IMG/VR virus record: IMGVR_UViG_2802429242_000010
Coordinates: 1 to 28,083 of that record
Strand: one strand, 5' to 3'
From: a virus
Taxonomy: Duplodnaviria > Heunggongvirae > Uroviricota > Caudoviricetes
Length of the DNA: 28,083 nucleotides
The notes below the pieces were generated by a model that was given only the letters and a program-made list of their open reading frames with translations, searched no databases and was not told the origin of the DNA. Numbering within the stretch: position 1 is the first letter of the stretch; the number at the start of each line of letters is the position of its first letter. Below, piece by piece: positions 542 through 27,462 of this stretch. A program made the translations under genes and the position numbers.

Positions 542-1579
542 TTAACGCTTGTCCGCCACCAGTTTGAGCGCGTGTTCCAGCACGTTAATATCGGCACCTG
601 CTTTATGGGCATTTTCACTTAAATAACGCCGCCACTGCCGCGCGCCAGGGATCCCCTGGAACAACCCCAACATATGGCGGGTGATATGACCGAGATACGT
701 ACCCTGGCTAAGCTCGCGTTCAATGTACGGATACATGGCTCGTACCACCGCCACCGGATCGGCATCGGTATCCGAGGAACCAAAAATCTCACGATCCACC
801 GCCGCCAGAATGCCGGGGTTTTGATACGCCTCGCGCCCGACCATCACACCATCCATATGTTGCAAATGCGCTTTAGCCTCTTCCAGCGACTTAATACCAC
901 CGTTAATCGACATCGTCAGATGCGGGAAATCACGCTTCAGTTGATAGACGCGCGGGTAATCGAGCGGCGGGATTTCACGGTTTTCTTTCGGACTTAAACC
1001 AGAAAGCCAGGCTTTACGCGCGTGGATGATAAACATCTCGCATTCGCCTTTGCCGGAAACGGTGTTGATGAAATCACAGAGAAATTCATAACTGTCCTGA
1101 TCATCAATGCCAATACGCGTTTTCACCGTCACCGGAATCGACACCACATCGCGCATCGCTTTCACGCAGTCGGCTACCAATTGCGCATTGCCCATCAGGC
1201 ACGCGCCAAACATCCCGTTCTGCACCCGGTCAGATGGGCAGCCAACATTCAGGTTGATCTCATCGTATCCGCGCGCTTGTGCCAGCTTCGCACATTGCGC
1301 CAGCGCCGCCGGATCGCTTCCACCCAACTGCAACGCCACCGGATGCTCTTCTTCACTGTACGCCAGGTAATCACCTTTACCGTGAATAATCGCCCCGGTG
1401 GTCACCATTTCGGTATAGAGCAACGTATTGCGGGAAAGCAGACGCAGGAAATAGCGGCAGTGTCTGTCCGTCCAGTCGAGCATAGGAGCAATGCTAAACC
1501 GAGAATTCCAGTAAACACCAGTTTTTTCAGGCATCACGCTGGTTTGATTAATTTTTTGTGTTTCATGATTATCGTGCAT
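542..1579 (-). CDS. dusA: tRNA-dihydrouridine synthase A
   Basis: 345-aa ORF with the conserved Dus/TIM-barrel core ([21 protein letters not shown], catalytic Cys region) that I recognise as enterobacterial DusA. Its 5' end directly abuts the integrase gene. Confidence 0.9.
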
Positions 1580-1667: not shown

Positions 1668-2765
1668 ATGGCGTACTATAACATAGAGAAACGACTAAAA
1701 TCCGATGGCACACCACGCTATCGCTGTAATGTGATTATCAAAGAAAAAGGTGTTATCACTTACAGGGAAAGCAAAACATTCCCTAAACATGCCCATGCCA
1801 AAACATGGGGTACACAGAAAGTGATGGAATTAGATCTATATGGCATTCCATCATCAAATGCAGTCGACGGACTTACAGTCCGTGACTTACTACACAAATA
1901 TTTAAATGACCCAAATGCCGGAGGTAAAGCAGGCCGTACTAAAAGATATGTGCTGGAACTGCTTATGGATAGTGACATCTCCGCGATCAAACTATCCGAA
2001 CTGACAGAAAATGACGTAATTGAACATTGCAGGCTAAGAAACAACGCTGGTGCAGGTCCAGCAACAGTCAGCCACGATGTTAGTTATCTTGGCAGTGTTC
2101 TGGATGCGGCCAAACCTGTATACGGAATTAATTACACATCAAACCCGGCGAAAAGCGCTCGTCCATATCTACTTAAACTTGGTTTGATTGGTAAATCAAA
2201 CCGTCGTAATCGTAGACCAGCATCTGATGAACTGGACATGCTCATTGAAGGCCTTCAACAACGATCTACTCATAAATGCTCAAAAATTCCGTTCGTTGAT
2301 ATCCTCAAATTTTCTGTGTGGTCCTGTATGCGAATCGGAGAAGTATGCCGGTTACGATGGGAAGATCTCGACCAGGAACAAAAATCTATACTCGTAAGAG
2401 ACAGGAAAGATCCACGCAAAAAGGAAGGCAACCACATGAAAGTAGCCTTGCTTGGGGAAGCCTGGGATATCGTCCAACGACAGCCCCAAAAATCGGAATT
2501 CATTTTTCCATATAACAGCACTTCTGTTACTGCGGGATTTCAGAGGGTAAGAAGCAAATTAGGTATTAAAGATCTGCGATACCATGATTTGCGTAGAGAA
2601 GGGGCAAGTCGCTTATTTGAGGCTGGTTTTAGTATTGAGGAAGTCGCCCAAGTTACAGGGCATCGTTCATTAAACGTGCTATGGCAGGTATATACCGAAC
2701 TGTATCCGAAATCTTTACATAATCGTTTTGAAGAGCTCCAAAAGAGCAGAAATAAGACCTCTTAA
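1668..2765 (+). CDS. int: Tyrosine-type site-specific integrase (dusA-associated family)
   Basis: 365 aa. C-terminal catalytic region with R (RIGEVCRLRWEDLD), H-x-x-R (YHDLRREG) and the tyrosine region (GHRSLNVLWQVYTEL). Located directly beside the 5' end of dusA. Confidence 0.9.
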   Translation: MAYYNIEKRLKSDGTPRYRCNVIIKEKGVITYRESKTFPKHAHAKTWGTQKVMELDLYGIPSSNAVDGLTVRDLLHKYLNDPNAGGKAGRTKRYVLELLMDSDISAIKLSELTENDVIEHCRLRNNAGAGPATVSHDVSYLGSVLDAAKPVYGINYTSNPAKSARPYLLKLGLIGKSNRRNRRPASDELDMLIEGLQQRSTHKCSKIPFVDILKFSVWSCMRIGEVCRLRWEDLDQEQKSILVRDRKDPRKKEGNHMKVALLGEAWDIVQRQPQKSEFIFPYNSTSVTAGFQRVRSKLGIKDLRYHDLRREGASRLFEAGFSIEEVAQVTGHRSLNVLWQVYTELYPKSLHNRFEELQKSRNKTS

Positions 2766-17990: not shown

Positions 17991-19257
17991 TGGTTTTTCC
18001 CTCATCGTTTTTTGGGGGCTTAAAATCTCCTGCCGGGTTAGCAGCATTCACGCTTACCAGCATCTCGTCCAGCCCTTCAACCGGATTCATATCCTCAAAT
18101 GCGCGGGCCTCATTACGGCTCATCCATCCATCGGTAATAGCGAAGTGATAGAATTGCGCGCGCTCCTGCGGAGTTCCGCGTAAAAGCCCCGTCAGATTGA
18201 ACCTGACGTAATACCCGGCGGCTAACTCAGCGCGGGTAAACAAGCGACGGTTAAGCTCCTGCTCCCAGTTCGTCACCCACGGCATCATCGTGTAGCGGAC
18301 AAACTGAATCGCCTGCGCAGAAATATTGGAGAAGGTGGCTTTTTCGAGGTCATTAATCATGTGCGCAGGAATATTGAAAATACCGGCGATCATTGAACGG
18401 TTCAGTTTCATCATGTCAATGATCTGAGCGTCAACTGGCGACACAGTCAGTGCCTTGTAATCCAGATCGGCTGGCAGCAGCATGGTTTTGTTTTCCTGGC
18501 GGCGTAACGCCTGCGATGCCTTCTGCCACTGATCTTTAAGCCAGCCCCAGCTTTCCTTATTGAGTCCGCTTTTAACGGATACTATCCCCGCCGGACGGGC
18601 ATTACCGCTGAAGAAGCTTTCTGTGTACTTCTGACCGCTCATCCCCATGCCTATTGTTTCGGCATGTTGCATAATCGGACTCAGCCCCATCTTCTGATTA
18701 TTACCCAGCGCACGGATGTGGATCATATCGTCCGGACTGATCGCAAACGCCCCATATTCGTTGTACAAACCGTAGGTATATCGGCCACCAGTATTCATCA
18801 GCGTCGTTTCCCACGGCATACAGCAATCCAGGGATATGACTTCACCGCGACGATTACGTTTCACCCAGGTATACCCATTCCCCCAGCCAAGGATGTGACG
18901 TTGCTTCAGTTCGCGCCATTTGTAGCTGGTTTGCCAAGTATTGGGCTCATCATGAACCAGATAAAACGCAGGATGATCGCGTGCGGGTTCAACCTTCCTC
19001 TTGTGCCTGCGCATAACATGCAACGGCATCTGGGCAAGGCTGGAAGACAGGACATAGATACAGGAATACACCGCAGCCAGTTTCATCGCAGTCTCAGGAC
19101 TGACATAAACGTCTGCCCGGAACAGCCCATCAGTATCAACGGCATCCCCGGTTATCGGGGTGGAAGGATTCTCCAGTGATTTACTTCTGAACAGAGCATC
19201 AAGCAGCACGCGTCCCCCTTCTGACCATAGCCAGTGCGCCCACCAGCAGTAAAGCAC
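17983..19257 (-). CDS. Portal protein (HK97 family)
   Basis: 424-aa ORF as given by the track (starts on GTG). The true start is probably downstream (GTG near 19209 after AGGGGGA, or a later ATG), because the first ~17 codons overlap a translationally coupled small ORF. Confidence 0.8.
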   Translation of the reverse strand: MLYCWWAHWLWSEGGRVLLDALFRSKSLENPSTPITGDAVDTDGLFRADVYVSPETAMKLAAVYSCIYVLSSSLAQMPLHVMRRHKRKVEPARDHPAFYLVHDEPNTWQTSYKWRELKQRHILGWGNGYTWVKRNRRGEVISLDCCMPWETTLMNTGGRYTYGLYNEYGAFAISPDDMIHIRALGNNQKMGLSPIMQHAETIGMGMSGQKYTESFFSGNARPAGIVSVKSGLNKESWGWLKDQWQKASQALRRQENKTMLLPADLDYKALTVSPVDAQIIDMMKLNRSMIAGIFNIPAHMINDLEKATFSNISAQAIQFVRYTMMPWVTNWEQELNRRLFTRAELAAGYYVRFNLTGLLRGTPQERAQFYHFAITDGWMSRNEARAFEDMNPVEGLDEMLVSVNAANPAGDFKPPKNDEGKTNE

Positions 19258-19360
19258 CGGACAGCATCAGAGCCGGAGCCATACCAAACTGCAGGTAAAC
19301 CCCGCACGTAAGCAGGCCAAAACCAGCCAGCCCGATAACATCAGCAATTAGTGATTTCAT
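19199..19360 (-). CDS. Possible small membrane protein (53 aa) between terminase and portal
   Basis: Not in the ORF track (under 60 aa). ATG overlaps the terL stop (ATGA). Translation [53 protein letters not shown] has two hydrophobic helices. Fills the terL-portal gap. Confidence 0.3.
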
Positions 19361-21090
19361 AGAATTAAGAGATCATCGTCCGGATCAAGAGATGAGAGGA
19401 AATCGTCAGGTTCTTTGAGCATTGCCCGACCGATCGTCATAATCAGTGCAACCGCACCATCGATTTTGTTTTCCGCCTGCTCCTTGACGGGCTTCACTAA
19501 ATCATCGTTACCTGGCATGTTTTTGCCGACCACATTGCCGATACACCAGGTCATGATGGGATTGCCGTCATGATGAAAGCGTCCCGATTCAATCGCTGCT
19601 TCCAGCTCTTTCATCGGATCGGACATATTGGCGAAGTTCTGGACGATAGTGACGGGATTCAGATCTTCATCAGCAAGGTCATGTGACAGCCCGGTCGCCC
19701 CGAAGGGGTCGATGGGTGACTCACTGACCGGGCTGATTTTGTTCGCCGCTTTGGCCTCTTCGAGGATGTAGCGATAATCCACCTCTGCACCATCGGTAAC
19801 GGTCAGGACGCCCATTTCCACCCATTTCTGAAAGCGTTCGGCGGTCCGGCGATCTTCATTTTTCTCGACGCTGTACACCGTGTCATACGGTACCCAGAAA
19901 CGCGGGGCCACACTGTAGTAATGCGTTTTACCGTCAATCTCGCGGGTATAAAGTCGCGCCATGCTGTTCATATCCAGCTTACGCGCCAGGTCAAAGGCCA
20001 GAATGCACGGCTGCCCCTCGAACTGCTCAAGGGTCAGTGATTTATCCTCGCAGCTCTGCCAGCTCACCAGGTTGAAATACGCCGAACGCGCCGACACCCA
20101 GATATTGAGGTGTTTTGTTTTAAAGACGTTTGCCAGACGGGCGTTATTTTTCGCACGTTGCTGCTGGCTTAACAAAAACTCGCGATAAACCGACACACCG
20201 ATATTCGGGTTAGCTTTTTCAAGTATCTGCGGGTCGGTCCAGTCGTCGCCTTCGTCAACGGTATAGATGATCCCGAACAGTTCATCGTTGGGCACCGAGC
20301 CGTTGAGCATCTCGATGACTTCCCGCCGTTTGTCGTAGCACGGCCCCTCAATGTTGTACCCGGCGGTGGTAATGGCCCACATCAGTGGCTGGCGTCGCGC
20401 CCCCATCCCGGTAAGCATTGTGGTATAAAGCGCATCGGTGGCATGCTCGTGATATTCATCAACCACGGCACAGTGGGGTGATGAACCATCACCGGGGTTG
20501 CCGATCAGCGGTTCAAACCGCGCGCCATCCTCCGGACGGTTCATGTTTGAGGCGTTAACCTCAATCCCGAACGCTTCCGTCAGCATGGGTGTGCGTTTAC
20601 ACATCAGTCGCGCCGGACGAAAGACTTCCCACGCCTGTTTCTCTGTCGTGGCACCGGAATACACTTCCGCGCCAAACTCGTTATCACAGGCAAAACAATA
20701 CAGGGCAACACCGGCAGAGATTGCCGATTTGCCGTTCTTACGGGGGATTTCGGTATACACCTCCCTGAAGCGGCGCAGCCGGGAGCCTTTATTGACCCAG
20801 CCAAACGCACAGCAGATCACAAATAGCTGCCACGGCTCCAGCGTGATGGGCATCCGTTTGAATGCCCACTCACCCTTGGTGTGCGGCAACAGCTGAATAA
20901 ATTTCGCGGCCCGTTCAGCCAGGTCCTTGTCGAAGCGGTAACGAAACGACTTACTTTTTTCCGCCATCAGGTCATCAAGATGGCGCTGGCAGGCCTGAAT
21001 CACAAACTGGCAGGCCACAATCTTTCCGCGCACGACATCACGGGCATACTGATTGGCAGCATTTACGTTGGGGTAAGATTTCCGGCTCAT
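19357..21090 (-). CDS. Terminase large subunit
   Basis: 577 aa; N-terminal ATPase region and C-terminal nuclease-type acidic motifs; start overlaps the terS stop (ATGA). Confidence 0.9.
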
Positions 21091-21581
21091 GATTCGATGA
21101 TTTTCAGAAACGGGTTAGTGGCTTTCTTCTGCCCCGCCAGGCCAATCAGACGCTGGCGGCTGCTGGGGTCGAGTCCGAGCATTGCCCCCGTGCTGCTCAT
21201 CTCGGACTCCTGTTCTTTTTTGGCGGTCAGCTCCGGATTTTTGACCCTGCCGCCCATTGCGCCGGTGATGGTGTTGCCCTGTATGGCAATATTTTTCACG
21301 GCACGTCGCCAGAACTCATAGGCCACGCACCACCGCTCAAGCACCGCGAGGTCAGTCACGCACAGCAGGCCCTGACCGCAGAGTTCTTTGGTTGTCAGTT
21401 GCCACATGATCGTGGCGAGAGGGAGATCTTCTTCAGCGAACCACTCCGGTGGCTCAACACCTTTGATGGGCGTAAAAACAGGTTCATCTTTGTTCAGGGC
21501 TCGCTTGCCGGGGTTTCCGGCCAGCGCCTTGCGCGCCGTTGGCTTGGGGCGACGCCCGGAACGCCCCGCCGTTCCAGCCAT
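21087..21581 (-). CDS. Terminase small subunit (P27-like family)
   Basis: Basic N-terminus ([29 protein letters not shown]) typical of P27-family TerS. Start placed at ATG with AGGAG 8 nt upstream; the track start at 21590 is a GTG. Confidence 0.75.
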
Positions 21582-21590
21582 ATGCGGCAC

Positions 21591-21706: not shown

Positions 21707-22057
21707 TCACTTAAGTCGTTCACGGGCCGTCTTCGCCTTATGACACGGCCAGCACAGACTCTGCAGATTACAGTCGGCATCAGTGCCGCCATGCGCTTTA
21801 GGGATGATGTGGTCAACGGTTTTCGCCTCACGCACCACACCAGCACGCAGACATAACTGACACAGGCCTTTGTCACGCTTCAGGACACCCGCGCGGATAC
21901 TGTCCCACTTCGAACCATAACCGCGCTGATGACGGGATTGTCCTGGCTTGTATTGCTTCCAGCCCTCGCTTTTGTGGCTTTCGCAATAGCCTGACGGATC
22001 AGTCGTGGTATTGCGGCAACCGCGAAAACGGCAGGCTTTTGGGGTTCGTGGTGGCAT
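21707..22057 (-). CDS. HNH endonuclease (terminase-associated)
   Basis: 116 aa; N-terminal Cys cluster (CRFRGC...C) and HNH core (DHIIPKAHGGTDADCNLQSLCWPCHKAK). RBS GAGGGG 5 nt upstream. Confidence 0.85.
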   Translation of the reverse strand: MPPRTPKACRFRGCRNTTTDPSGYCESHKSEGWKQYKPGQSRHQRGYGSKWDSIRAGVLKRDKGLCQLCLRAGVVREAKTVDHIIPKAHGGTDADCNLQSLCWPCHKAKTARERLK

Positions 22058-22715: not shown

Positions 22716-23177
22716 TCATCGAAGGCATTGCGTCCTGATGTACTCCTGCAGGTAGTTAACCTGTGCGGTTATCCTGTCGATTCCACTTCGGAGACGGTAA
22801 TAATTGAGTTCAGCATCTGCTGTAAGTCCTGGGCTTTCTCCATCGCCCATGCCGCTGGCTCCGGTCGTTGACTTTGCACAGGTGGCGGCGACTTGCAGGC
22901 GCTTACGCCCAGCAGAAACATCAGCACGGAGACTTTCGATAGTCGCGTTAGCATCAGCAAGCTCCTTTGTGTATCTGGCGTCAAGTTCTGCTACGTCACG
23001 TTGACGCTTCTGCATATCAGAGATAGTCGCCATAGCCGAATCTAATGCCATAGCATTCTCATCACGCTGCTTTTTGTATTCGATGGCTTTGCTGTGGTAA
23101 TAATTTGCTGAACAGATAAAAGAACCAATGACAGTAACGAAGAATGCAGCGATAACCAGCTTATAGCTCAACTTCAT
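22716..23177 (-). CDS. Rz: Spanin inner-membrane subunit (Rz-like i-spanin)
   Basis: 153 aa; N-terminal TM helix, coiled-coil periplasmic domain and C-terminal Cys; clearly similar to lambda Rz as I recall it (YKAQRD..., MQxRQRDVAxLDAxYTKELADA...). Confidence 0.85.
   Translation of the reverse strand: MKLSYKLVIAAFFVTVIGSFICSANYYHSKAIEYKKQRDENAMALDSAMATISDMQKRQRDVAELDARYTKELADANATIESLRADVSAGRKRLQVAATCAKSTTGASGMGDGESPGLTADAELNYYRLRSGIDRITAQVNYLQEYIRTQCLR
22769..22954 (-). CDS. Rz1: Spanin outer-membrane lipoprotein subunit (Rz1-like o-spanin), embedded in Rz in another frame
   Basis: Start at internal Met giving MLTRLSKVSVLMFLLGVSAC|KSPPPVQSQRPEPAAW...; lipobox V-S-A-C followed by a Pro-rich segment; fully inside the Rz gene in a different frame, as in lambda. 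Confidence 0.7.
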   Translation of the reverse strand: MLTRLSKVSVLMFLLGVSACKSPPPVQSQRPEPAAWAMEKAQDLQQMLNSIITVSEVESTG

Positions 23178-23637
23178 TTACCACCCCGCCAGCCTCTTTG
23201 AATCGGGCAATCAGGTCACCGATTTTATGTTCATACTGACCGTAACCAGCGCCCGGCAGTGAAGCCCAGATATTGCTGCAACGATCGATAGCCTGACGAA
23301 TATCGCCGCGATCAATCATCGGTAAAGCGCCACGCTCTTTAATCTGCTGCAATGCCACAGCATCCTGGCTTTTTGGAGAGAAGTCTTTCAGCCCAAGCTG
23401 CTTGCGGTAAGCATCCCACCAGCGTGAAAGAAGTTGATAACGGCCTGCAGCTGTTGATTTGAGTTTGGGGTTTAGCGTGACAAGTTTGCGAGGGTGATCG
23501 GAGTAATCAGTGAACAGTTCGCCACCAACAATAACATCATAACCGTGGTTACGTGTCGGTTGTCGCCCGTTATCCGTTCCTTCTGACCATGCCACCATAT
23601 CAAGGAAAGCTTTACGCTGGGAATTTAGTGCCTGCAT
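23161..23637 (-). CDS. R: Endolysin, lambda R-type lytic transglycosylase
   Basis: 158 aa, near-identical over long stretches to lambda R as I recall it (QRKAFLDM.AWSEGTDNGRQ.TRNHGYDVIVGGELFTDYSDHPRKLVTLNPKLKST.AGRYQLLSRWWDAYRKQLGLKDFSPKSQDAVALQQIKERGALPMIDRGDIRQAIDRCSNIWASLPGAGYGQ). Confidence 0.9.
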   Translation of the reverse strand: MQALNSQRKAFLDMVAWSEGTDNGRQPTRNHGYDVIVGGELFTDYSDHPRKLVTLNPKLKSTAAGRYQLLSRWWDAYRKQLGLKDFSPKSQDAVALQQIKERGALPMIDRGDIRQAIDRCSNIWASLPGAGYGQYEHKIGDLIARFKEAGGVVNEVEL

Positions 23638-23640
23638 AAA

Positions 23641-23967
23641 TTACTCCTTAGAGCCACCAAACTTATTACCGATTACTCGCATTGCAGCCCCACGAATAGC
23701 ATCGACCCCGATCAGCCCAACGCCGCCACCAATGGCAACAGAAAGAGATTTAGGCCATCCGACATACTCAAGAGCGGATGCAAAAGTCAGCGTCAGAGCA
23801 CCACAGAGCAAAATCTCGAGCGTTTTTCGTTTCCAGCCACCACCACCGCCAAAATAGGCAATACGTAAACCAGCCATAACGATCGACATAATCACTGCGC
23901 CCAGCGGTGTGTCTCCACGCCACCAGCTCTGGACCAACTCCAGCCAAGTATTTGGGTTATGAGGCAT
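23641..23967 (-). CDS. S: Holin (class I, lambda S-like)
   Basis: 108 aa, three predicted TM segments and charged C-terminus; immediately upstream of the R/Rz/Rz1 genes. Confidence 0.8.
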   Translation of the reverse strand: MPHNPNTWLELVQSWWRGDTPLGAVIMSIVMAGLRIAYFGGGGGWKRKTLEILLCGALTLTFASALEYVGWPKSLSVAIGGGVGLIGVDAIRGAAMRVIGNKFGGSKE

Positions 23968-24246: not shown

Positions 24247-26037
24247 ATGAGCACAGAATTAAAACTAAAGAAAATTATGGCATCGTCTAAAATTGAGCCA
24301 TTTATTAGACATATTCGTTTTCCTTTTTTTAAAAACCTTGCAGAGGGTAGCAAGATTGATTTTGAGTATCCAATTACAGCATTAGTTGGTCAAAACGGGA
24401 CCAATAAAAGTTCTGTTTTAAGAGCCCTATTCGGTTCTCCAAACAACTATTCTCTGGGTAGCTTATGGTTTTCTACAGATGTAGATGAGATTAAAGATGG
24501 TGGTCGTTCTAGATTTATTTATGGATATTATGACAAAGCTACTGATTCAATTGTTGAAGTAATTAAAACTCGAATCTCTAAAGAAAATGATCCTGATTAC
24601 TGGGAACCATCCAGACCATTAAAATCCGACAACATGGCTCCAATGCCTAGTACAAAAATCTCAACCAATCAACTAAGGACTAGGTGGAAAGCTATTGACA
24701 AAAATGTAATATATTTAGATTTCAGAGCAACTATCAGTGCATTTGATAAGTTCTTTTATCACTCTGATTTTCATACATACCCTAAGAAAGATTATCTTAG
24801 AAAACGCAGTCAGATGCTAAAAGACATTATAGATAACGATCTTAAAAAATATCAACCTCATAAAGGAAAAAAAGACAAGCTATTTGTTAACACTTTATTA
24901 GAAAAAAGTAAGGTAGAGGCAATCAGCAAGATTTTAGGTCGCAAATACACAAGCATCCGCCTTATTGAACATAGCTTATTCACTAATGACAAAGCTCCCA
25001 CAATTATTCTTCAATCAGAAAACTTAAAATATTCTGAAGCTTTCGCAGGCAGTGGGGAATTTGCTGTATCTATATTAGTGCATAAACTAATGGATAGCCC
25101 TGATGCATCTTTAATTCTGCTAGATGAACCTGAAGTATCACTTCACCCTTCTGCTCAATGTCAATTGATGGAATTTTTATCAGAACAAGCACTTAAAAAG
25201 AAACATCAAATTGTCATATCCACACATTCATCAACAATAGTAAAAGACTTGCCTAAAAATGCCATAAAATTATTCTGTCTGAATGATAAAGTAGGAAAGG
25301 TTGATGTTCTTCAAAATGTCAGCCCAGAAGAATCTTTCTTTATTCTTGGTGAACGCATTGATAAAAGAACCGTTATTGTAGAAGATCGGTTAGCGAAGAG
25401 GTTTGTAGAAAAGGCGCTTAAAGCGGGTGGTGAAGCATTATTAAACTCCTTCGAAGTAAAACATGTTCCTGGAGGAGCGGGAAGTATTCTTCAAACTTTG
25501 GCTGTGCCTTTATGTGTTGCCAATGTTAAAAACGTTATTTTCTTATTAGATGGTGACCAATCGAGAACTGATGATTATCCAACTTCTGATTCCATACCAG
25601 AAAATCAAAACACAAACCTTCAAAACATCATAAAAGAAATAACCAATCAAGATATAAAATTTAGTTGTGATGGTTCTAATGGCTCATCAAATAACAATCA
25701 AAAATACAAAATGCAAAGAAATTTTATCGATTTCATCCACGATAAAATTGCTTTTCTTCCTGTTTATACTCCTGAAGCATTTCTTATTGAGAATGTTCAT
25801 GGTGATTATAAAGAATATAAAGATCAAATCCCCAAAAACATTCAAGATGCTAAAGAAATCACCAAAGAACTTTGTAAGTTAGACACAGGGTTGGAGAACG
25901 TTACCAGTGACGATATCTTTGAAACACAAATCAGAATTCTTAATAAAATACCAAATAATCATGAAGTGTTAACAAAAACTCGAGAGTTGCTGCAAATCTT
26001 TTTAGATAATGATACTATCAGACCAAGAGTGAGGTAG
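24247..26037 (+). CDS. P-loop ATPase with Toprim-like C-terminal region (OLD / PARIS-like architecture); candidate ATP-dependent nuclease
   Basis: 596 aa. N-terminal Walker A (ALVGQNGTNKSSVL), ABC-like region (FAGSGEFA), Walker B (LILLDEPEVSLHP) and H-loop-like VISTHS. C-terminal half has Toprim-like acidic motifs (TVIVEDRLAKRF and NVIFLLDGDQ). Strongly AT-rich. Domain calls are by-eye motif recognition. Confidence 0.6.
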   Translation: MSTELKLKKIMASSKIEPFIRHIRFPFFKNLAEGSKIDFEYPITALVGQNGTNKSSVLRALFGSPNNYSLGSLWFSTDVDEIKDGGRSRFIYGYYDKATDSIVEVIKTRISKENDPDYWEPSRPLKSDNMAPMPSTKISTNQLRTRWKAIDKNVIYLDFRATISAFDKFFYHSDFHTYPKKDYLRKRSQMLKDIIDNDLKKYQPHKGKKDKLFVNTLLEKSKVEAISKILGRKYTSIRLIEHSLFTNDKAPTIILQSENLKYSEAFAGSGEFAVSILVHKLMDSPDASLILLDEPEVSLHPSAQCQLMEFLSEQALKKKHQIVISTHSSTIVKDLPKNAIKLFCLNDKVGKVDVLQNVSPEESFFILGERIDKRTVIVEDRLAKRFVEKALKAGGEALLNSFEVKHVPGGAGSILQTLAVPLCVANVKNVIFLLDGDQSRTDDYPTSDSIPENQNTNLQNIIKEITNQDIKFSCDGSNGSSNNNQKYKMQRNFIDFIHDKIAFLPVYTPEAFLIENVHGDYKEYKDQIPKNIQDAKEITKELCKLDTGLENVTSDDIFETQIRILNKIPNNHEVLTKTRELLQIFLDNDTIRPRVR

Positions 26038-26040
26038 ATA

Positions 26041-27081
26041 ATGGCTAAAAAGATACACGTTTACGATTTCTTTTCCGGCTGCGGCGGAACCAGTGTAGGC
26101 CTAAAAGCGGTGGGAATGGAAATTATTTTCGGTTTAGATATTGATCTAGACTCCGCTAACACCTTTAAAATGAATAATCCATTTGCACATTTTATCAATG
26201 GTGATATCAAAGATACACACGTTGAGGAAATTAAGCATCTGGTTTGTGCGTCAACACAAAGCAAAGCTCTAACCCTTTTTTGTGGTTGTGCTCCATGTCA
26301 ACCATTCTCGAAACAAAATAAAATACGGAACGAGGATGATCCGAGAAAAGATCTGCTTACTGAGTTTGCACGGTTTGTCTCTTATTATACGCCAGACTTT
26401 GTACTGGTAGAGAATGTACCAGGAATCCAAAATGTCGATATTAACAATGGAAATTTCCAGAAATTTCTTGAGGTTTTAGCACATCATCACTACAACGTTG
26501 ATTTTGGTGTGATTCCTGCGTTGTGGTTCGGGGTTCCTCAAACACGTGAACGTTTTGTTTTACTGGCGTCAAAACACACGAATATTAAGCTTCCATCACA
26601 AACTCATGATGGATTAAAAACTCCGTATGCAACTGTCAGAGACTGGATCGGCGGATTACCTCCTATTGCTGCCGGTGAAACTCATAAAGATGTTATGGAT
26701 CATACAGCAGCCAAACTATCTGATCTAAATATTAAACGTATTAAAGCGACTCCTGAGGGAAAAGGTAGAGAATCTTGGCCTGAAGAACTTATACTAAAAT
26801 GCCATAAAAAATATAAAGGGCATACTGATGTTTATGGACGGCTTTCTTGGGACAAACCAGCAAGTGGATTAACAACTAGATGTATAAGCTATTCGAATGG
26901 ACGTTTCGGACATCCAGAGCAAGATAGGGCTATTTCTGTTAGAGAGGCTGCGTTATTACAGACTTTCCCATTAGACTATTCCTTCACAGGCTCTTTAGTC
27001 TCGAAAGCCAAACAGATAGGGAATGCAGTCCCTCCCAAGATGGCTGAAGCTCTTGGAAGGGCTATCATCGCATCACTTTAA
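26041..27081 (+). CDS. DNA (cytosine-5)-methyltransferase
   Basis: 346 aa with canonical C5-MTase motifs in order: I FSGCGG, IV PCQPFS (catalytic Cys), VI ENV, VIII QTRERF, X GNAVPP. Starts 3 nt after the ATPase stop (operon-like). Confidence 0.9.
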   Translation: MAKKIHVYDFFSGCGGTSVGLKAVGMEIIFGLDIDLDSANTFKMNNPFAHFINGDIKDTHVEEIKHLVCASTQSKALTLFCGCAPCQPFSKQNKIRNEDDPRKDLLTEFARFVSYYTPDFVLVENVPGIQNVDINNGNFQKFLEVLAHHHYNVDFGVIPALWFGVPQTRERFVLLASKHTNIKLPSQTHDGLKTPYATVRDWIGGLPPIAAGETHKDVMDHTAAKLSDLNIKRIKATPEGKGRESWPEELILKCHKKYKGHTDVYGRLSWDKPASGLTTRCISYSNGRFGHPEQDRAISVREAALLQTFPLDYSFTGSLVSKAKQIGNAVPPKMAEALGRAIIASL

Positions 27082-27091
27082 AAGCGGAGCC

Positions 27092-27445
27092 CTAGAGGGC
27101 TTCGCCTAACAATAATAGAATACCTGATATAAACCCTATAGCTCCCTGAAGCTCTTTTCTAATTGCTCCATCAGAGCATTTTCTTTTCTTAGCAATGGTG
27201 CGTAATGAGATACCAATCACAAAATGAGCAATGATCAGCTCATATTCTTCTGGTTTATACTTCCGCAGGCGGGCGACACAGCCATCAATCATGATGCCTT
27301 CATCATCATCGCACTGAATCCGGGACTTTCTGCCATGAGGTAAAAGCCCCTTGAAGCCAGCGGCTACCGGTTGCCAATCCACACCACTGTTCTCTGCCGC
27401 AGCCCACGCTCCCCAACGGTCTAATACTTCATACATATCACACAT
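27092..27445 (-). CDS. Q: Late-gene antitermination protein Q (phage 82 / DLP12 QuuD-like family)
   Basis: About 117 aa from ATG with RBS GGAG upstream; similar to the QuuD-type Q protein I recall (..LERWGAWAA...AAGFKGL...CDDD..I..GC.ARL...). Located upstream of the lysis cassette on the same strand. Confidence 0.75.
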   Translation of the reverse strand: MCDMYEVLDRWGAWAAAENSGVDWQPVAAGFKGLLPHGRKSRIQCDDDEGIMIDGCVARLRKYKPEEYELIIAHFVIGISLRTIAKKRKCSDGAIRKELQGAIGFISGILLLLGEAL

Positions 27446-27462
27446 CAACTTTCTCCACCAAA

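Follow-up and report, generated by a model that had tools for sequence, protein, structure and literature searches.

A predicted 53-residue membrane hairpin encoded between the terminase and portal genes of an SfV-like prophage

Between the genes for the large terminase subunit (terL) and the portal protein of an SfV-like prophage lies a third, very small gene (X), whose frame is under purifying selection and whose product is predicted to be a hairpin of two hydrophobic helices. We propose that X is a late gene and that its product most likely works in the inner membrane together with the portal and packaging machinery; we give this reading a probability of roughly one half. The window, that is, the whole 28,083-nt stretch of DNA that was analysed, is 99% identical to phage SfV in this sequence, and X overlaps both of its neighbors. 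The features of the locus are as follows.

19357–21090, minus strand: terL, large terminase subunit, 577 aa (Pfam TerL_ATPase and TerL_nuclease)
19361–19437, minus strand: codons of the C-terminal ~26 residues of TerL, which diverge from SfII, SfIV, SfI and ST64B
19357–19360, minus strand: ATGA overlap, read from the sequence, of the terL stop (TGA, 19359–19357) and the X start (ATG, 19360–19358)
19199–19360, minus strand: X, 53 aa plus stop (TGA, 19201–19199); PHROG 7105 member, RefSeq hypothetical protein WP_170998582.1
19292–19351, minus strand: predicted helix 1 (TM1), about residues 4–23, Gly/Ala-rich, with the family-conserved D7, G13 and G20 (AlphaFold2 helix 2–25, hydropathy, conservation)
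19280–19291, minus strand: predicted tight hairpin turn Q24-F25-G26-M27, at the center of the vYLqFG motif of the family (helix break at residue 26 in the AlphaFold2 model)
19223–19279, minus strand: predicted helix 2 (TM2), about residues 28–46, with G35 invariant family-wide (hydropathy, AlphaFold2, conservation)
19202–19222, minus strand: basic C-terminal tail RRGTRAA, with dual-use codons that also supply the portal Shine-Dalgarno and start (sequence)
19213–19219, minus strand: portal Shine-Dalgarno AGGGGGA, 3 nt before the GTG, kept in all close relatives (canonical AGGAGGA in locus L091)
19210–19257, minus strand: spurious 16-codon N-terminal portal extension, as in the SfV record, equal to the +1 frame of X
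17983–19209, minus strand: portal gene (HK97-type) from the corrected start GTG (19209–19207), 408 aa, with an 11-nt overlap with X

Coding status and annotation of the small ORF

The initial annotation had described a 53-codon ORF at 19199–19360 that opens on the ATGA of the terL stop, and these statements about the sequence hold. Codon-substitution patterns further show that the ORF is a genuine phage gene. It is uninterrupted, at 52–53 codons, in 91 of 91 related loci examined. Over codons 2–50, that is, outside the overlap with the portal gene, the frame of X has a pN/pS of 0.22, near the value for the terL C-terminus (0.17), whereas the two remaining forward frames give 1.05 and 3.13; the variable columns are distributed 22/15/41 over the three codon positions, an excess at the third position (chi-square p = 0.0009). 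The length of the frame is not significant alone, because 53 open codons follow a start in random sequence with a probability of (61/64)^53 = 0.079; it is conservation that lifts the ORF above chance. This probability of about 0.08 per start is what would favor a chance open frame without coding function, but such a frame is refuted by the codon-substitution pattern and by the family-wide conservation, and we regard its likelihood as negligible. The earlier reservation that the ORF might have arisen by chance in GC-rich DNA is thereby removed; moreover, the window has a GC content of 50% and is not GC-rich (X, 55.6%; flanks, 53.9% and 51.5%). The possibility that the stretch is an RNA element and not a gene was also considered and dropped, because the minus-strand fold of 19190–19380 is unremarkable (z = −0.95).

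The description of the ORF as unannotated is correct for the SfV and SKA5 phage records; it is incorrect for PGAP (WP_170998582.1) and for several other phage records. In the SfV RefSeq record the portal runs from the upstream GTG and X is missing. In a 100%-identical E. coli chromosome annotated by PGAP, WP_170998582.1 is present together with a 408-aa portal that starts at the position of 19209, and the same three product names recur in 25 of 25 listed records, among 263 matching E. coli genomes. RefSeq/PGAP thus already annotates both the small ORF and the corrected portal, so neither point is new; for the window, the result is a correction of the 2002-era SfV record, that is, the addition of a 53-aa gene and the shortening of the portal by 16 residues, both of which current pipelines make.

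Portal start and translational coupling

The gene downstream of X matches the HK97-family portal models PF04860 (327.5 bits; cut-off 39.1) and TIGR01537 (324.4 bits; cut-off 112). Its longest ORF opens at GTG 19257, within the frame of X, and it is this start that leaves a 99-nt 'gap' after terL. The initial annotation suspected that the start was mis-set and preferred the GTG near 19209; the upstream stops, the N-terminal alignments and the PGAP call all agree. Comparison of the relatives places the true portal start at GTG 19209, and the start in the SfV record (GTG 19257) is by this comparison an artefact, 48 nt too early. Stops occur 3–6 codons upstream of the conserved portal start in 6 of 33 distinct sequences (L004, L006, L077–L080), in 14 of the 33 there is no start codon upstream of it, and the position homologous to 19209 is an ATG in Symbiopectobacterium, in Klebsiella phages and in E. 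coli phages. The PHROG portal match begins at residue 18 of the longest ORF. The N-termini of diverse portals align at MLLD.LF, and with the 19209 start MLLDALFRS aligns to the N-termini of the portals of SfII and of loci L103, L107 and L100; the 16 extra residues have no counterpart in family members, and the 408-aa length called by PGAP is that given by the 19209 start. Across the relatives it is therefore the portal extension that is broken by stops (the 6 of 33) and X that is never interrupted, the opposite of the pattern (a disrupted small ORF beside a conserved portal extension) that would speak against X.

Each of the 48 distinct related regions has the ATGA overlap with terL, as do distant members, and a Shine-Dalgarno is absent before the ATG of X both in the window and in the homologues with ATGA; the coupling to terL proposed in the initial annotation is thus supported in every homologue. 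Without a Shine-Dalgarno of its own, initiation of X should depend on translation of terL (termination-reinitiation). At its other end, in the window and in relatives, the portal Shine-Dalgarno and start sit within X, where AGAAGGGGGA.GCGTG is kept. Because X starts on the terL stop and its last codons house the portal Shine-Dalgarno and GTG, the three cistrons form a translational chain.

Such a chain raises the question of whether the peptide matters. If it did not, the ORF would be a translational bridge from terL to the portal start that houses the portal ribosome-binding site; the ATGA overlap, the portal signals in the last codons of X and the conservation of this overlapping architecture all fit, and HK97 manages with a direct terL/portal overlap. 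A spacer would not, however, preserve D7, G13, G20, YLxFG and G35 over 144 clusters at 50% identity, the selection on codons 2–50 outside the portal overlap is not expected of one, and YmfR-type relatives (described below) have their own Shine-Dalgarno and an 11-nt gap after terL; we consider the bridge unlikely.

We also considered recoding, that is, a frameshift or readthrough at the end of X that would fuse the hairpin to the portal and yield a minor, membrane-anchored portal species. A G5 run and tandem AGA-AGG codons (both rare in E. coli) precede the junction, in locus L102 the portal frame directly follows the X stop in the same frame, and fused products occur in the databases (P0026, P0034, P0036). 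However, the relative frame and the overlap differ among homologues, some of which overlap by 1 to 17 nt and others not at all, the G run is missing from distant members, and the database fusions have further frameshifts and look like assembly errors. With frames and overlaps that vary in this way, recoding was rejected as a conserved mechanism, and we judge it very improbable in the window.

Family, predicted structure and occupants of the same slot

X matches PHROG 7105 with E = 5.6e-22, its residues 1–52 aligning to profile positions 1–52 of 52. It is a member of this family without any difference: the members (RefSeq 'hypothetical protein', e.g., WP_170998582.1 and WP_000811487.1) have the same length and occupy the same slot between terL and a 408-aa portal in phages of E. 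coli, Klebsiella and Edwardsiella. A profile search collects 144 clusters at 50% identity that share D7..G13..G20-vYLqFG26..G35; F25 and G26 do not vary among close homologues, and across the wide family the conservation of G26 is at least 90%. Among nine distant or marginal members that were looked up (27–52% identical to the window protein), seven have the order TerL-X-portal (PF04860). In P0046, P0083, P0129, P0166, P0155 and P0172, TerL, X and Phage_portal are followed by an S78 or S49/ClpP protease, and all but P0155 also have an HK97-type capsid gene called further downstream; in P0095 the upstream gene is TerL and the downstream gene is cut. In an eighth distant member, P0103 (L099–L101), the gene before X is not terL, yet the overlap with a PF04860 portal is kept.

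The AlphaFold2 model of the 53-aa protein is a hairpin (helices 2–25 and 27–52; pLDDT 88.8), in agreement with the two hydrophobic helices described in the initial annotation. The hairpin is almost wholly hydrophobic and, by the positive-inside rule, should lie in the inner membrane such that its N- and C-termini both face the cytoplasm. A sequence search of the PDB with the window protein gave no match, Foldseek against BFVD gave none at E ≤ 0.001 (no surprise for a hairpin of 53 residues), and the Pfam search gave no family at E ≤ 1; the PHROGs matched are 7105, 502 and 4810 only.

A membrane protein inside a packaging operon had been called unusual. The comparisons point the other way: a small, predicted two-helix protein is common in the terL-portal slot, and we infer that YmfR and DUF1056 are two other small two-helix families that fill it in other HK97-like phages. 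YmfR, from the cryptic prophage e14 of E. coli K-12 (b1150, IPR020297), is identical to SfII_03, is near-identical to ST64B Sb3 and is assigned to PHROG 502 ('membrane protein'). It is a hydrophobic two-helix protein of 60 aa encoded between ymfN (a terminase chimera) and beeE (a portal fragment); the YmfR-type gene lies between terL and portal in SfII and ST64B too, and its 3′ end carries the portal Shine-Dalgarno and overlaps the portal GTG. An hhalign comparison of the YmfR-type and window families gives a probability of 94% (E = 1.2e-7) with the conserved glycines aligned, although hydrophobic composition can inflate such scores. There is no BLASTP similarity between YmfR and the window protein, and the cross-hits are weak (window protein to PHROG 502, E = 9.6e-5; YmfR to PHROG 7105, E = 0.022). 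The turn is IYPPAG in YmfR and YLQFG in the window protein, which lacks both the IYPPAG turn and the C..WSW motif of YmfR helix 2 and has no W or P motif; YmfR also differs in having its own Shine-Dalgarno and the 11-nt gap in place of ATGA, and in being followed by a portal that is only 26% identical to that of the window.

DUF1056 (PF06341) is represented by orf59c of Streptococcus phage Sfi21, a 59-aa protein that by inspection looks like a two-helix hydrophobic hairpin, its first helix containing an Asp and its turn reading Y-x-W-F-G; its gene lies between terL and a PF04860 portal that is followed by protease and capsid genes. The window protein has no Pfam match, its hhalign probability against Sfi21 orf59c is 0.5%, and the host of Sfi21 is Gram-positive; DUF1056 is thus best regarded as a positional and topological analogue. 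The HK97 genome has no small gene in this position, and its terL and portal overlap directly.

Small genes in the terminase-portal slot are also known from phage lambda, in which the gene for gpW, a 68-aa head-completion protein, lies in the head operon between terminase A and portal B; gpW is soluble and binds the filled head, whereas the window protein is hydrophobic over nearly its whole length. For the placing of a portal or packaging vertex at a membrane by small membrane proteins, precedents may be seen in T4, in which portal (gp20) initiation is membrane-assisted with gp40, and in PRD1, whose packaging vertex includes the small membrane proteins P20 and P22; none of these has a sequence relationship to the window protein, and we know of no requirement for a membrane in HK97-type assembly. 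Our literature search found no account of the function of YmfR, of the function of DUF1056 or of a terL-portal membrane protein.

Inheritance and possible roles

X appears to be inherited with the portal module and the C-terminal tail of TerL, not with the body of TerL. TerL is 98% identical to that of SfII up to about residue 551 and divergent beyond, and the DNA matches to SfII, SfIV, SfI and ST64B end at query position 263–266; the TerL tail (~26 residues), X and the portal thus diverge together from these four phages, which places a mosaic joint at about 19437. The same contrast between terminase and head genes has been described among Sf phages (PMC3851460). Within the close family, the divergence of X tracks the terL side (r = 0.925) and the portal side (r = 0.926) alike, so the mirror-tree does not favor co-divergence with the portal.

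This inheritance, together with the presence of YmfR and DUF1056 in the same slot, makes a role with the portal or packaging module at the cytoplasmic membrane the most likely one. The hairpin would sit in the inner membrane, where it could hold or nucleate the portal; alternatively, it could tether the mRNA and nascent portal. Expression would be late and not from the prophage, as suggested by the lack of a promoter-like site on the ORF strand and by the co-induction of ymfR with e14 genes. The protein would be a non-universal accessory and not a core component, since HK97 lacks the gene; with HK97 proheads assembling from plasmid-expressed genes, it cannot be essential to the mechanism.

The initial annotation had suggested a moron or exclusion factor. 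A superinfection-exclusion gene expressed from the prophage would have a precedent in HK97 gp15, a moron in the tail operon, and X is likewise a small membrane protein within a structural operon; like gp15 and the class II holins/pinholins (e.g., S21-68), it has two predicted TM helices and a charged C-terminus. The locus itself does not favor this suggestion, which we regard as improbable: the minus strand of 18800–19800 contains no sigma-70-like promoter, the single terminator-like hairpin is weak and lies inside the ORF, and X overlaps terL and portal, resembles its flanks in GC content and is constant in the 91 related loci, not sporadic. A promoter or terminator of its own was rejected for X, since the counts are at chance level. 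In addition, SOS induction raises ymfR together with the rest of the e14 genes (PMC10012262), which speaks for late expression and against a moron. PADLOC gave no match for the window protein, and no homology to holin, defence or exclusion proteins was found in PHROGs, Pfam, NCBIfam or PADLOC.

A class II holin or pinholin is not favored either: X lies outside the lysis cassette, PHROGs 7105, 502 and 4810 are not lysis families, and there is no Pfam match. The holin/endolysin/Rz cassette of the phage is at 22716–23967, ~3.4 kb from X.

A more serious alternative, possible although we doubt it, is a late membrane effector whose target is the host envelope and whose action is separate from head assembly (e.g., a lysis-timing modulator, a pinholin- or antiholin-like protein or a late block to superinfecting DNA), the place in the head operon giving it only late, low-level expression. 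In size and shape X resembles small membrane effectors of phages, with two helices joined by a tight turn, a basic C-terminus and an Asp within its Gly/Ala-rich helix 1, nearly the whole protein is membrane-buried, which favors an intramembrane target, and the related PHROG 502 is placed by PHROGs in the category 'moron, auxiliary metabolic gene and host takeover'. Against it, the phage already has its full lysis cassette, the holin-family and PADLOC searches are negative, and accessory effectors are usually sporadic and mobile, whereas X keeps one slot through >50% divergence, with both S78 and S49 protease types and from marine to enteric habitats.

We extend the portal/packaging reading, as a tentative proposal, to PHROG 7105, YmfR/IPR020297 and perhaps DUF1056 together: they may form a single, widespread class of accessories of HK97-type heads that are embedded in the membrane and have been overlooked, and through which the cytoplasmic membrane would be linked to the synthesis or assembly of the portal or to the packaging motor. 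In that case, many HK97-like phages would have a membrane-associated step in head morphogenesis for which the HK97 model has no equivalent. The general conclusion, modest but real, is that hundreds of diverged HK97-like phages keep a very small hydrophobic hairpin in the terminase-portal slot, and E. coli K-12 carries its relative YmfR. Because the gene is small, can be mutated without disturbing its neighbors and is present in the tractable phages SfV, ST64B and Sfi21, experiments could address directly whether it takes part in head assembly or packaging.

As a separate observation on the model, only about three residues at the N-terminus and seven at the C-terminus would protrude into the cytoplasm, which would leave little surface for a soluble portal and counts against a portal role. 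It is no less plausible than portal binding that the protein acts inside the membrane, either on a host protein or by associating with itself, and the basic and Gly-rich character of its C-terminal tail may reflect the demands of the portal ribosome-binding site rather than the function of the protein.

The small frame between terL and the portal gene

The packaging and head genes of the window relevant here are the following.

21087-21590, minus strand: terS
19357-21090, minus strand: terL
19199-19360, minus strand: small ORF X, 53 codons (ATG 19360-19358, TGA stop 19201-19199)
17983-19257, minus strand: portal gene, longest ORF (from GTG 19257)
16148-17377, minus strand: HK97-type capsid gene, downstream of a prohead protease gene

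The start ATG of X overlaps the terL stop (ATGA), and GTG 19257 of the longest portal ORF falls within X, one base out of the X frame; a second portal-frame GTG is located at 19209, 3 nt past AGGGGGA (19219-19213). Shigella phage SfV is 99% identical to the window over the terL-X-portal stretch, and its RefSeq record lists terL, a 99-nt 'gap' and a portal gene that starts at the upstream GTG, with the small gene absent from the annotation; the sequence and this record match the layout described in the initial annotation (the ORF, the ATGA overlap, the gap and the upstream-GTG portal). Only in old or sparse records, SfV and SKA5 among them, is X 'unannotated'; RefSeq E. coli genomes and several phage records include it. 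The stretch is present in 263 of 5,426 complete E. coli genomes, and the order terminase large subunit, hypothetical protein, phage portal protein is annotated in 25 of 25 among the matches listed of the 263 (coordinates verified in two of those records); the phage records EPP-1, vB_VIPKPNMC05 and vB_EcoS-716R3 carry the same three overlapping genes. Current RefSeq annotation already treats X and the portal correctly, and X is an ordinary member of a known phage family.

The prohead protease gene (minus strand) is located between the portal and capsid genes; its longest ORF, from ATG 18047, encodes 219 aa (17388-18047, minus strand), and the SfV and PGAP annotations have 200 aa from 17990, with an 8-nt overlap with the portal end. 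An HNH endonuclease gene (21707-22057, minus strand) is immediately upstream of terS and also precedes the P27-family terS (Pfam Terminase_4) in three related loci (L094, L095 and L103); this position is typical of HK97-like cos packaging modules.

Conservation of X and the start of the portal gene

The chance of an open 53-codon frame is ~0.08 per start; an open frame by itself proves nothing, and conservation decides the question. The initial annotation had allowed for a chance ORF in GC-rich DNA, but the GC content of the window is 50%, so it is not GC-rich. A large protein database contains 30 clusters of 52-53-aa homologues that are 60-96% identical in the alignment, several with the NCBI name 'hypothetical protein'. 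X aligns end to end with PHROG 7105 (E = 5.6e-22), and 144 clusters at 50% identity came out of a profile search against 1.8 billion representative proteins; nearly all of them are 45-60 aa long and have in common, beyond mere hydrophobicity, a specific motif of D7, G13, G20, vYLqFG26 and an invariant G35. The codon-substitution analysis that had been proposed as a check covered 16 diverged representatives: the frame of X has a pN/pS of 0.22, the two remaining forward frames have 1.05 and 3.13, and the neighboring terL C-terminus has 0.17; variable columns are distributed 22/15/41 over codon positions 1/2/3 (p = 0.0009). The frame is intact, with 52-53 codons, in 91 of the 91 related loci fetched from genomes and viral contigs. 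On this comparative evidence X is a real gene, and a chance ORF is excluded. The initial annotation was right in both of its calls, X as a gene and a later portal start; the pattern it named as speaking against X, an interrupted X beside a conserved portal extension, is the opposite of what was found, because the extension, not X, contains stops in some homologues.

For the portal gene, five independent lines of comparison favor GTG 19209 as the start, as had been proposed from the preceding AGGGGGA. First, the match to the PHROG portal profile begins no earlier than residue 18 of the long form (the ORF from GTG 19257). Second, 6 of the 33 distinct homologous sequences (loci L004, L006 and L077-L080) carry portal-frame stops 3-6 codons ahead of the conserved start, and 14 of the 33 lack any upstream start codon. 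Third, Symbiopectobacterium prophages and Klebsiella and E. coli phages have ATG at the homologous position, and in locus L091 the portal Shine-Dalgarno sequence is the canonical AGGAGGA. Fourth, the N-terminus from 19209 (MLLDALFRS) aligns with the N-termini of portals that are just 26-54% identical. Fifth, in one E. coli chromosome, 100% identical to the window across the 401-bp query, PGAP calls a 408-aa portal that begins 11 nt before the X stop. Read in this way, the 16 additional N-terminal residues of the long form are the +1 frame of X.

In locus L102 (2308-2435) the likely portal start (MGFLSAILNP...) comes immediately after the X stop and in frame with X (TGA ATG); automated gene calling placed it 127 nt further downstream, another mis-set portal start. 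Eight database members of the family (P0004, P0008, P0009, P0011, P0018, P0026, P0034 and P0036) have a swapped C-terminus or an in-frame fusion to the portal N-terminus, some with additional frameshifts; the most likely cause is misassembly, or decay of the prophages, near the G5 run. A recoding fusion of X to the portal is unlikely.

The ATGA overlap of terL and X is universal among the homologues, and a Shine-Dalgarno-like sequence before the X ATG was found in none of them; X is therefore expected to rely for its initiation on ribosomes finishing terL. The final codons of X, AGA AGG GGG ACG CGT GCT GCT TGA (RRGTRAA), house both the Shine-Dalgarno sequence and the start codon of the portal gene, so part of the 'basic tail' is constrained by the portal ribosome-binding site. 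As judged from these overlaps, terL, X and portal form a translational chain; X as a pure 'translational bridge' is unlikely. No promoter-like site was found on the X strand, and its one weak terminator-like hairpin, inside X (19290-19306, minus strand), probably reflects GC-rich Gly/Ala/Leu codons, because such hairpins occur at chance frequency and the RNA fold of the region is unremarkable (z = -0.95).

Relatives and genomic context

A natural module swap is seen within the Shigella phage group: the window terL is 98% identical to that of phage SfII to about residue 551, past which the last ~26 terL residues, X and the portal (26% identity) all differ; because the three diverge together, X, by sequence comparison, travels with the portal module and the terL C-terminal tail. 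In terminases such as lambda gpA this tail is the portal-binding end. The mosaic joint is at ~19437 (minus strand), within the terL 3' end, and DNA identity to SfII, SfIV, SfI and ST64B (90-97%) breaks off some 78 nt short of the terL stop. The terminases of the Sf phages are >90% identical and their head genes are unlike those of SfV (PMC3851460).

The terL-portal slot that X has here is filled in SfII by SfII_03 and in ST64B by Sb3, each annotated as 'membrane protein'; the SfII record places a 'putative rho-independent terminator' within SfII_03 (locus L092, 2370-2419). SfII_03 is identical to YmfR (PHROG 502) of the E. coli K-12 e14 prophage, where ymfR has the terminase chimera ymfN on one side and the portal fragment beeE on the other; in YmfR-type proteins the C-terminal end, GGGK over GGCGGAGGTAAATAGTG, is constrained by the portal ribosome-binding site as in X. 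Pairwise BLAST gave no match between X and YmfR; when the profiles of the two families are compared, the probability is 94% (E = 1.2e-7) and their glycines line up. Hydrophobic composition can inflate such a score; a distant relationship is probable. In Streptococcus phage Sfi21 a 59-aa Pfam DUF1056 protein, with two hydrophobic helices by inspection and no detectable homology to the X family, precedes the PF04860 (Phage_portal) gene in the same slot. HK97 has no gene there, since gp2 and gp3 abut. None of the papers searched assigns a function to X-family, YmfR or DUF1056 proteins: in them, ymfR is named only as one of the genes of an e14 deletion, among first-round candidates of an ASKA overexpression screen and among SOS-induced e14 genes, and DUF1056 only within a list of HMMs.

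Nine distant or marginal members (27-52% identical to the window protein, profile E up to 8e-4) were looked up; enteric bacteria and a Tara (TARA_) metagenome scaffold are among their sources. The order TerL, X, downstream gene occurs in 7 of the 9: six (P0046, P0083, P0129, P0166, P0155 and P0172) have a Pfam-confirmed TerL upstream and Phage_portal downstream, then an S78 or S49/ClpP protease and, except in P0155, a called HK97-type capsid gene; in P0095 TerL is upstream and the contig ends within the downstream gene. In P0103 (loci L099-L101) terL is not upstream and X still overlaps a PF04860 portal; the contig of P0137 is too short to judge order. Across these genomes the position of X next to the portal appears strictly conserved.

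Predicted topology and possible roles

The AlphaFold2 model of X is a helical hairpin (helices 2-25 and 27-52, mean pLDDT 88.8), so that the product of this late gene is a predicted two-helix hydrophobic hairpin. Its N-terminal K2, C-terminal R47/R48/R51 and uncharged four-residue turn suggest, by the positive-inside rule, that both ends are cytoplasmic, with nearly the whole protein in the inner membrane.

Genes that hold a fixed place in the head operon across such divergence normally work with their neighbors; our best guess, a weak one, is therefore that X may serve the portal and packaging module as an accessory located in the membrane. Possible roles would be to hold the portal at the membrane or nucleate it, or to tether the polycistronic mRNA and nascent portal there. 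The guess is weak because HK97 manages without X and little of the protein would be exposed to the cytoplasm. The main rival is that X encodes a late membrane effector separate from head assembly that acts on lysis timing or late exclusion; the phage's own holin, endolysin and Rz genes are located at 22716-23967. The suggestion of an unusual moron or exclusion factor is not supported, and a prophage-expressed moron is unlikely.

Elsewhere in the window, two opposite-strand genes (24247-27081, plus strand) are located between antiterminator Q (27092-27448, minus strand) and holin (23641-23967, minus strand). The first encodes a 596-aa AAA_15/AAA_21 ATPase (best PADLOC matches HEC-04 and ATPase-Toprim_I-B; weaker ones GajA, PtuA and Old) and the second a 346-aa C-5 cytosine DNA methyltransferase; the pair resembles cargo of a defence type inserted at the Q-lysis junction. 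At 542-2765, probably the prophage boundary, a phage integrase gene (1668-2765, plus strand) adjoins a gene for dihydrouridine synthase (Dus; 542-1579, minus strand); dusA is a known integration target for one family of prophage integrases.
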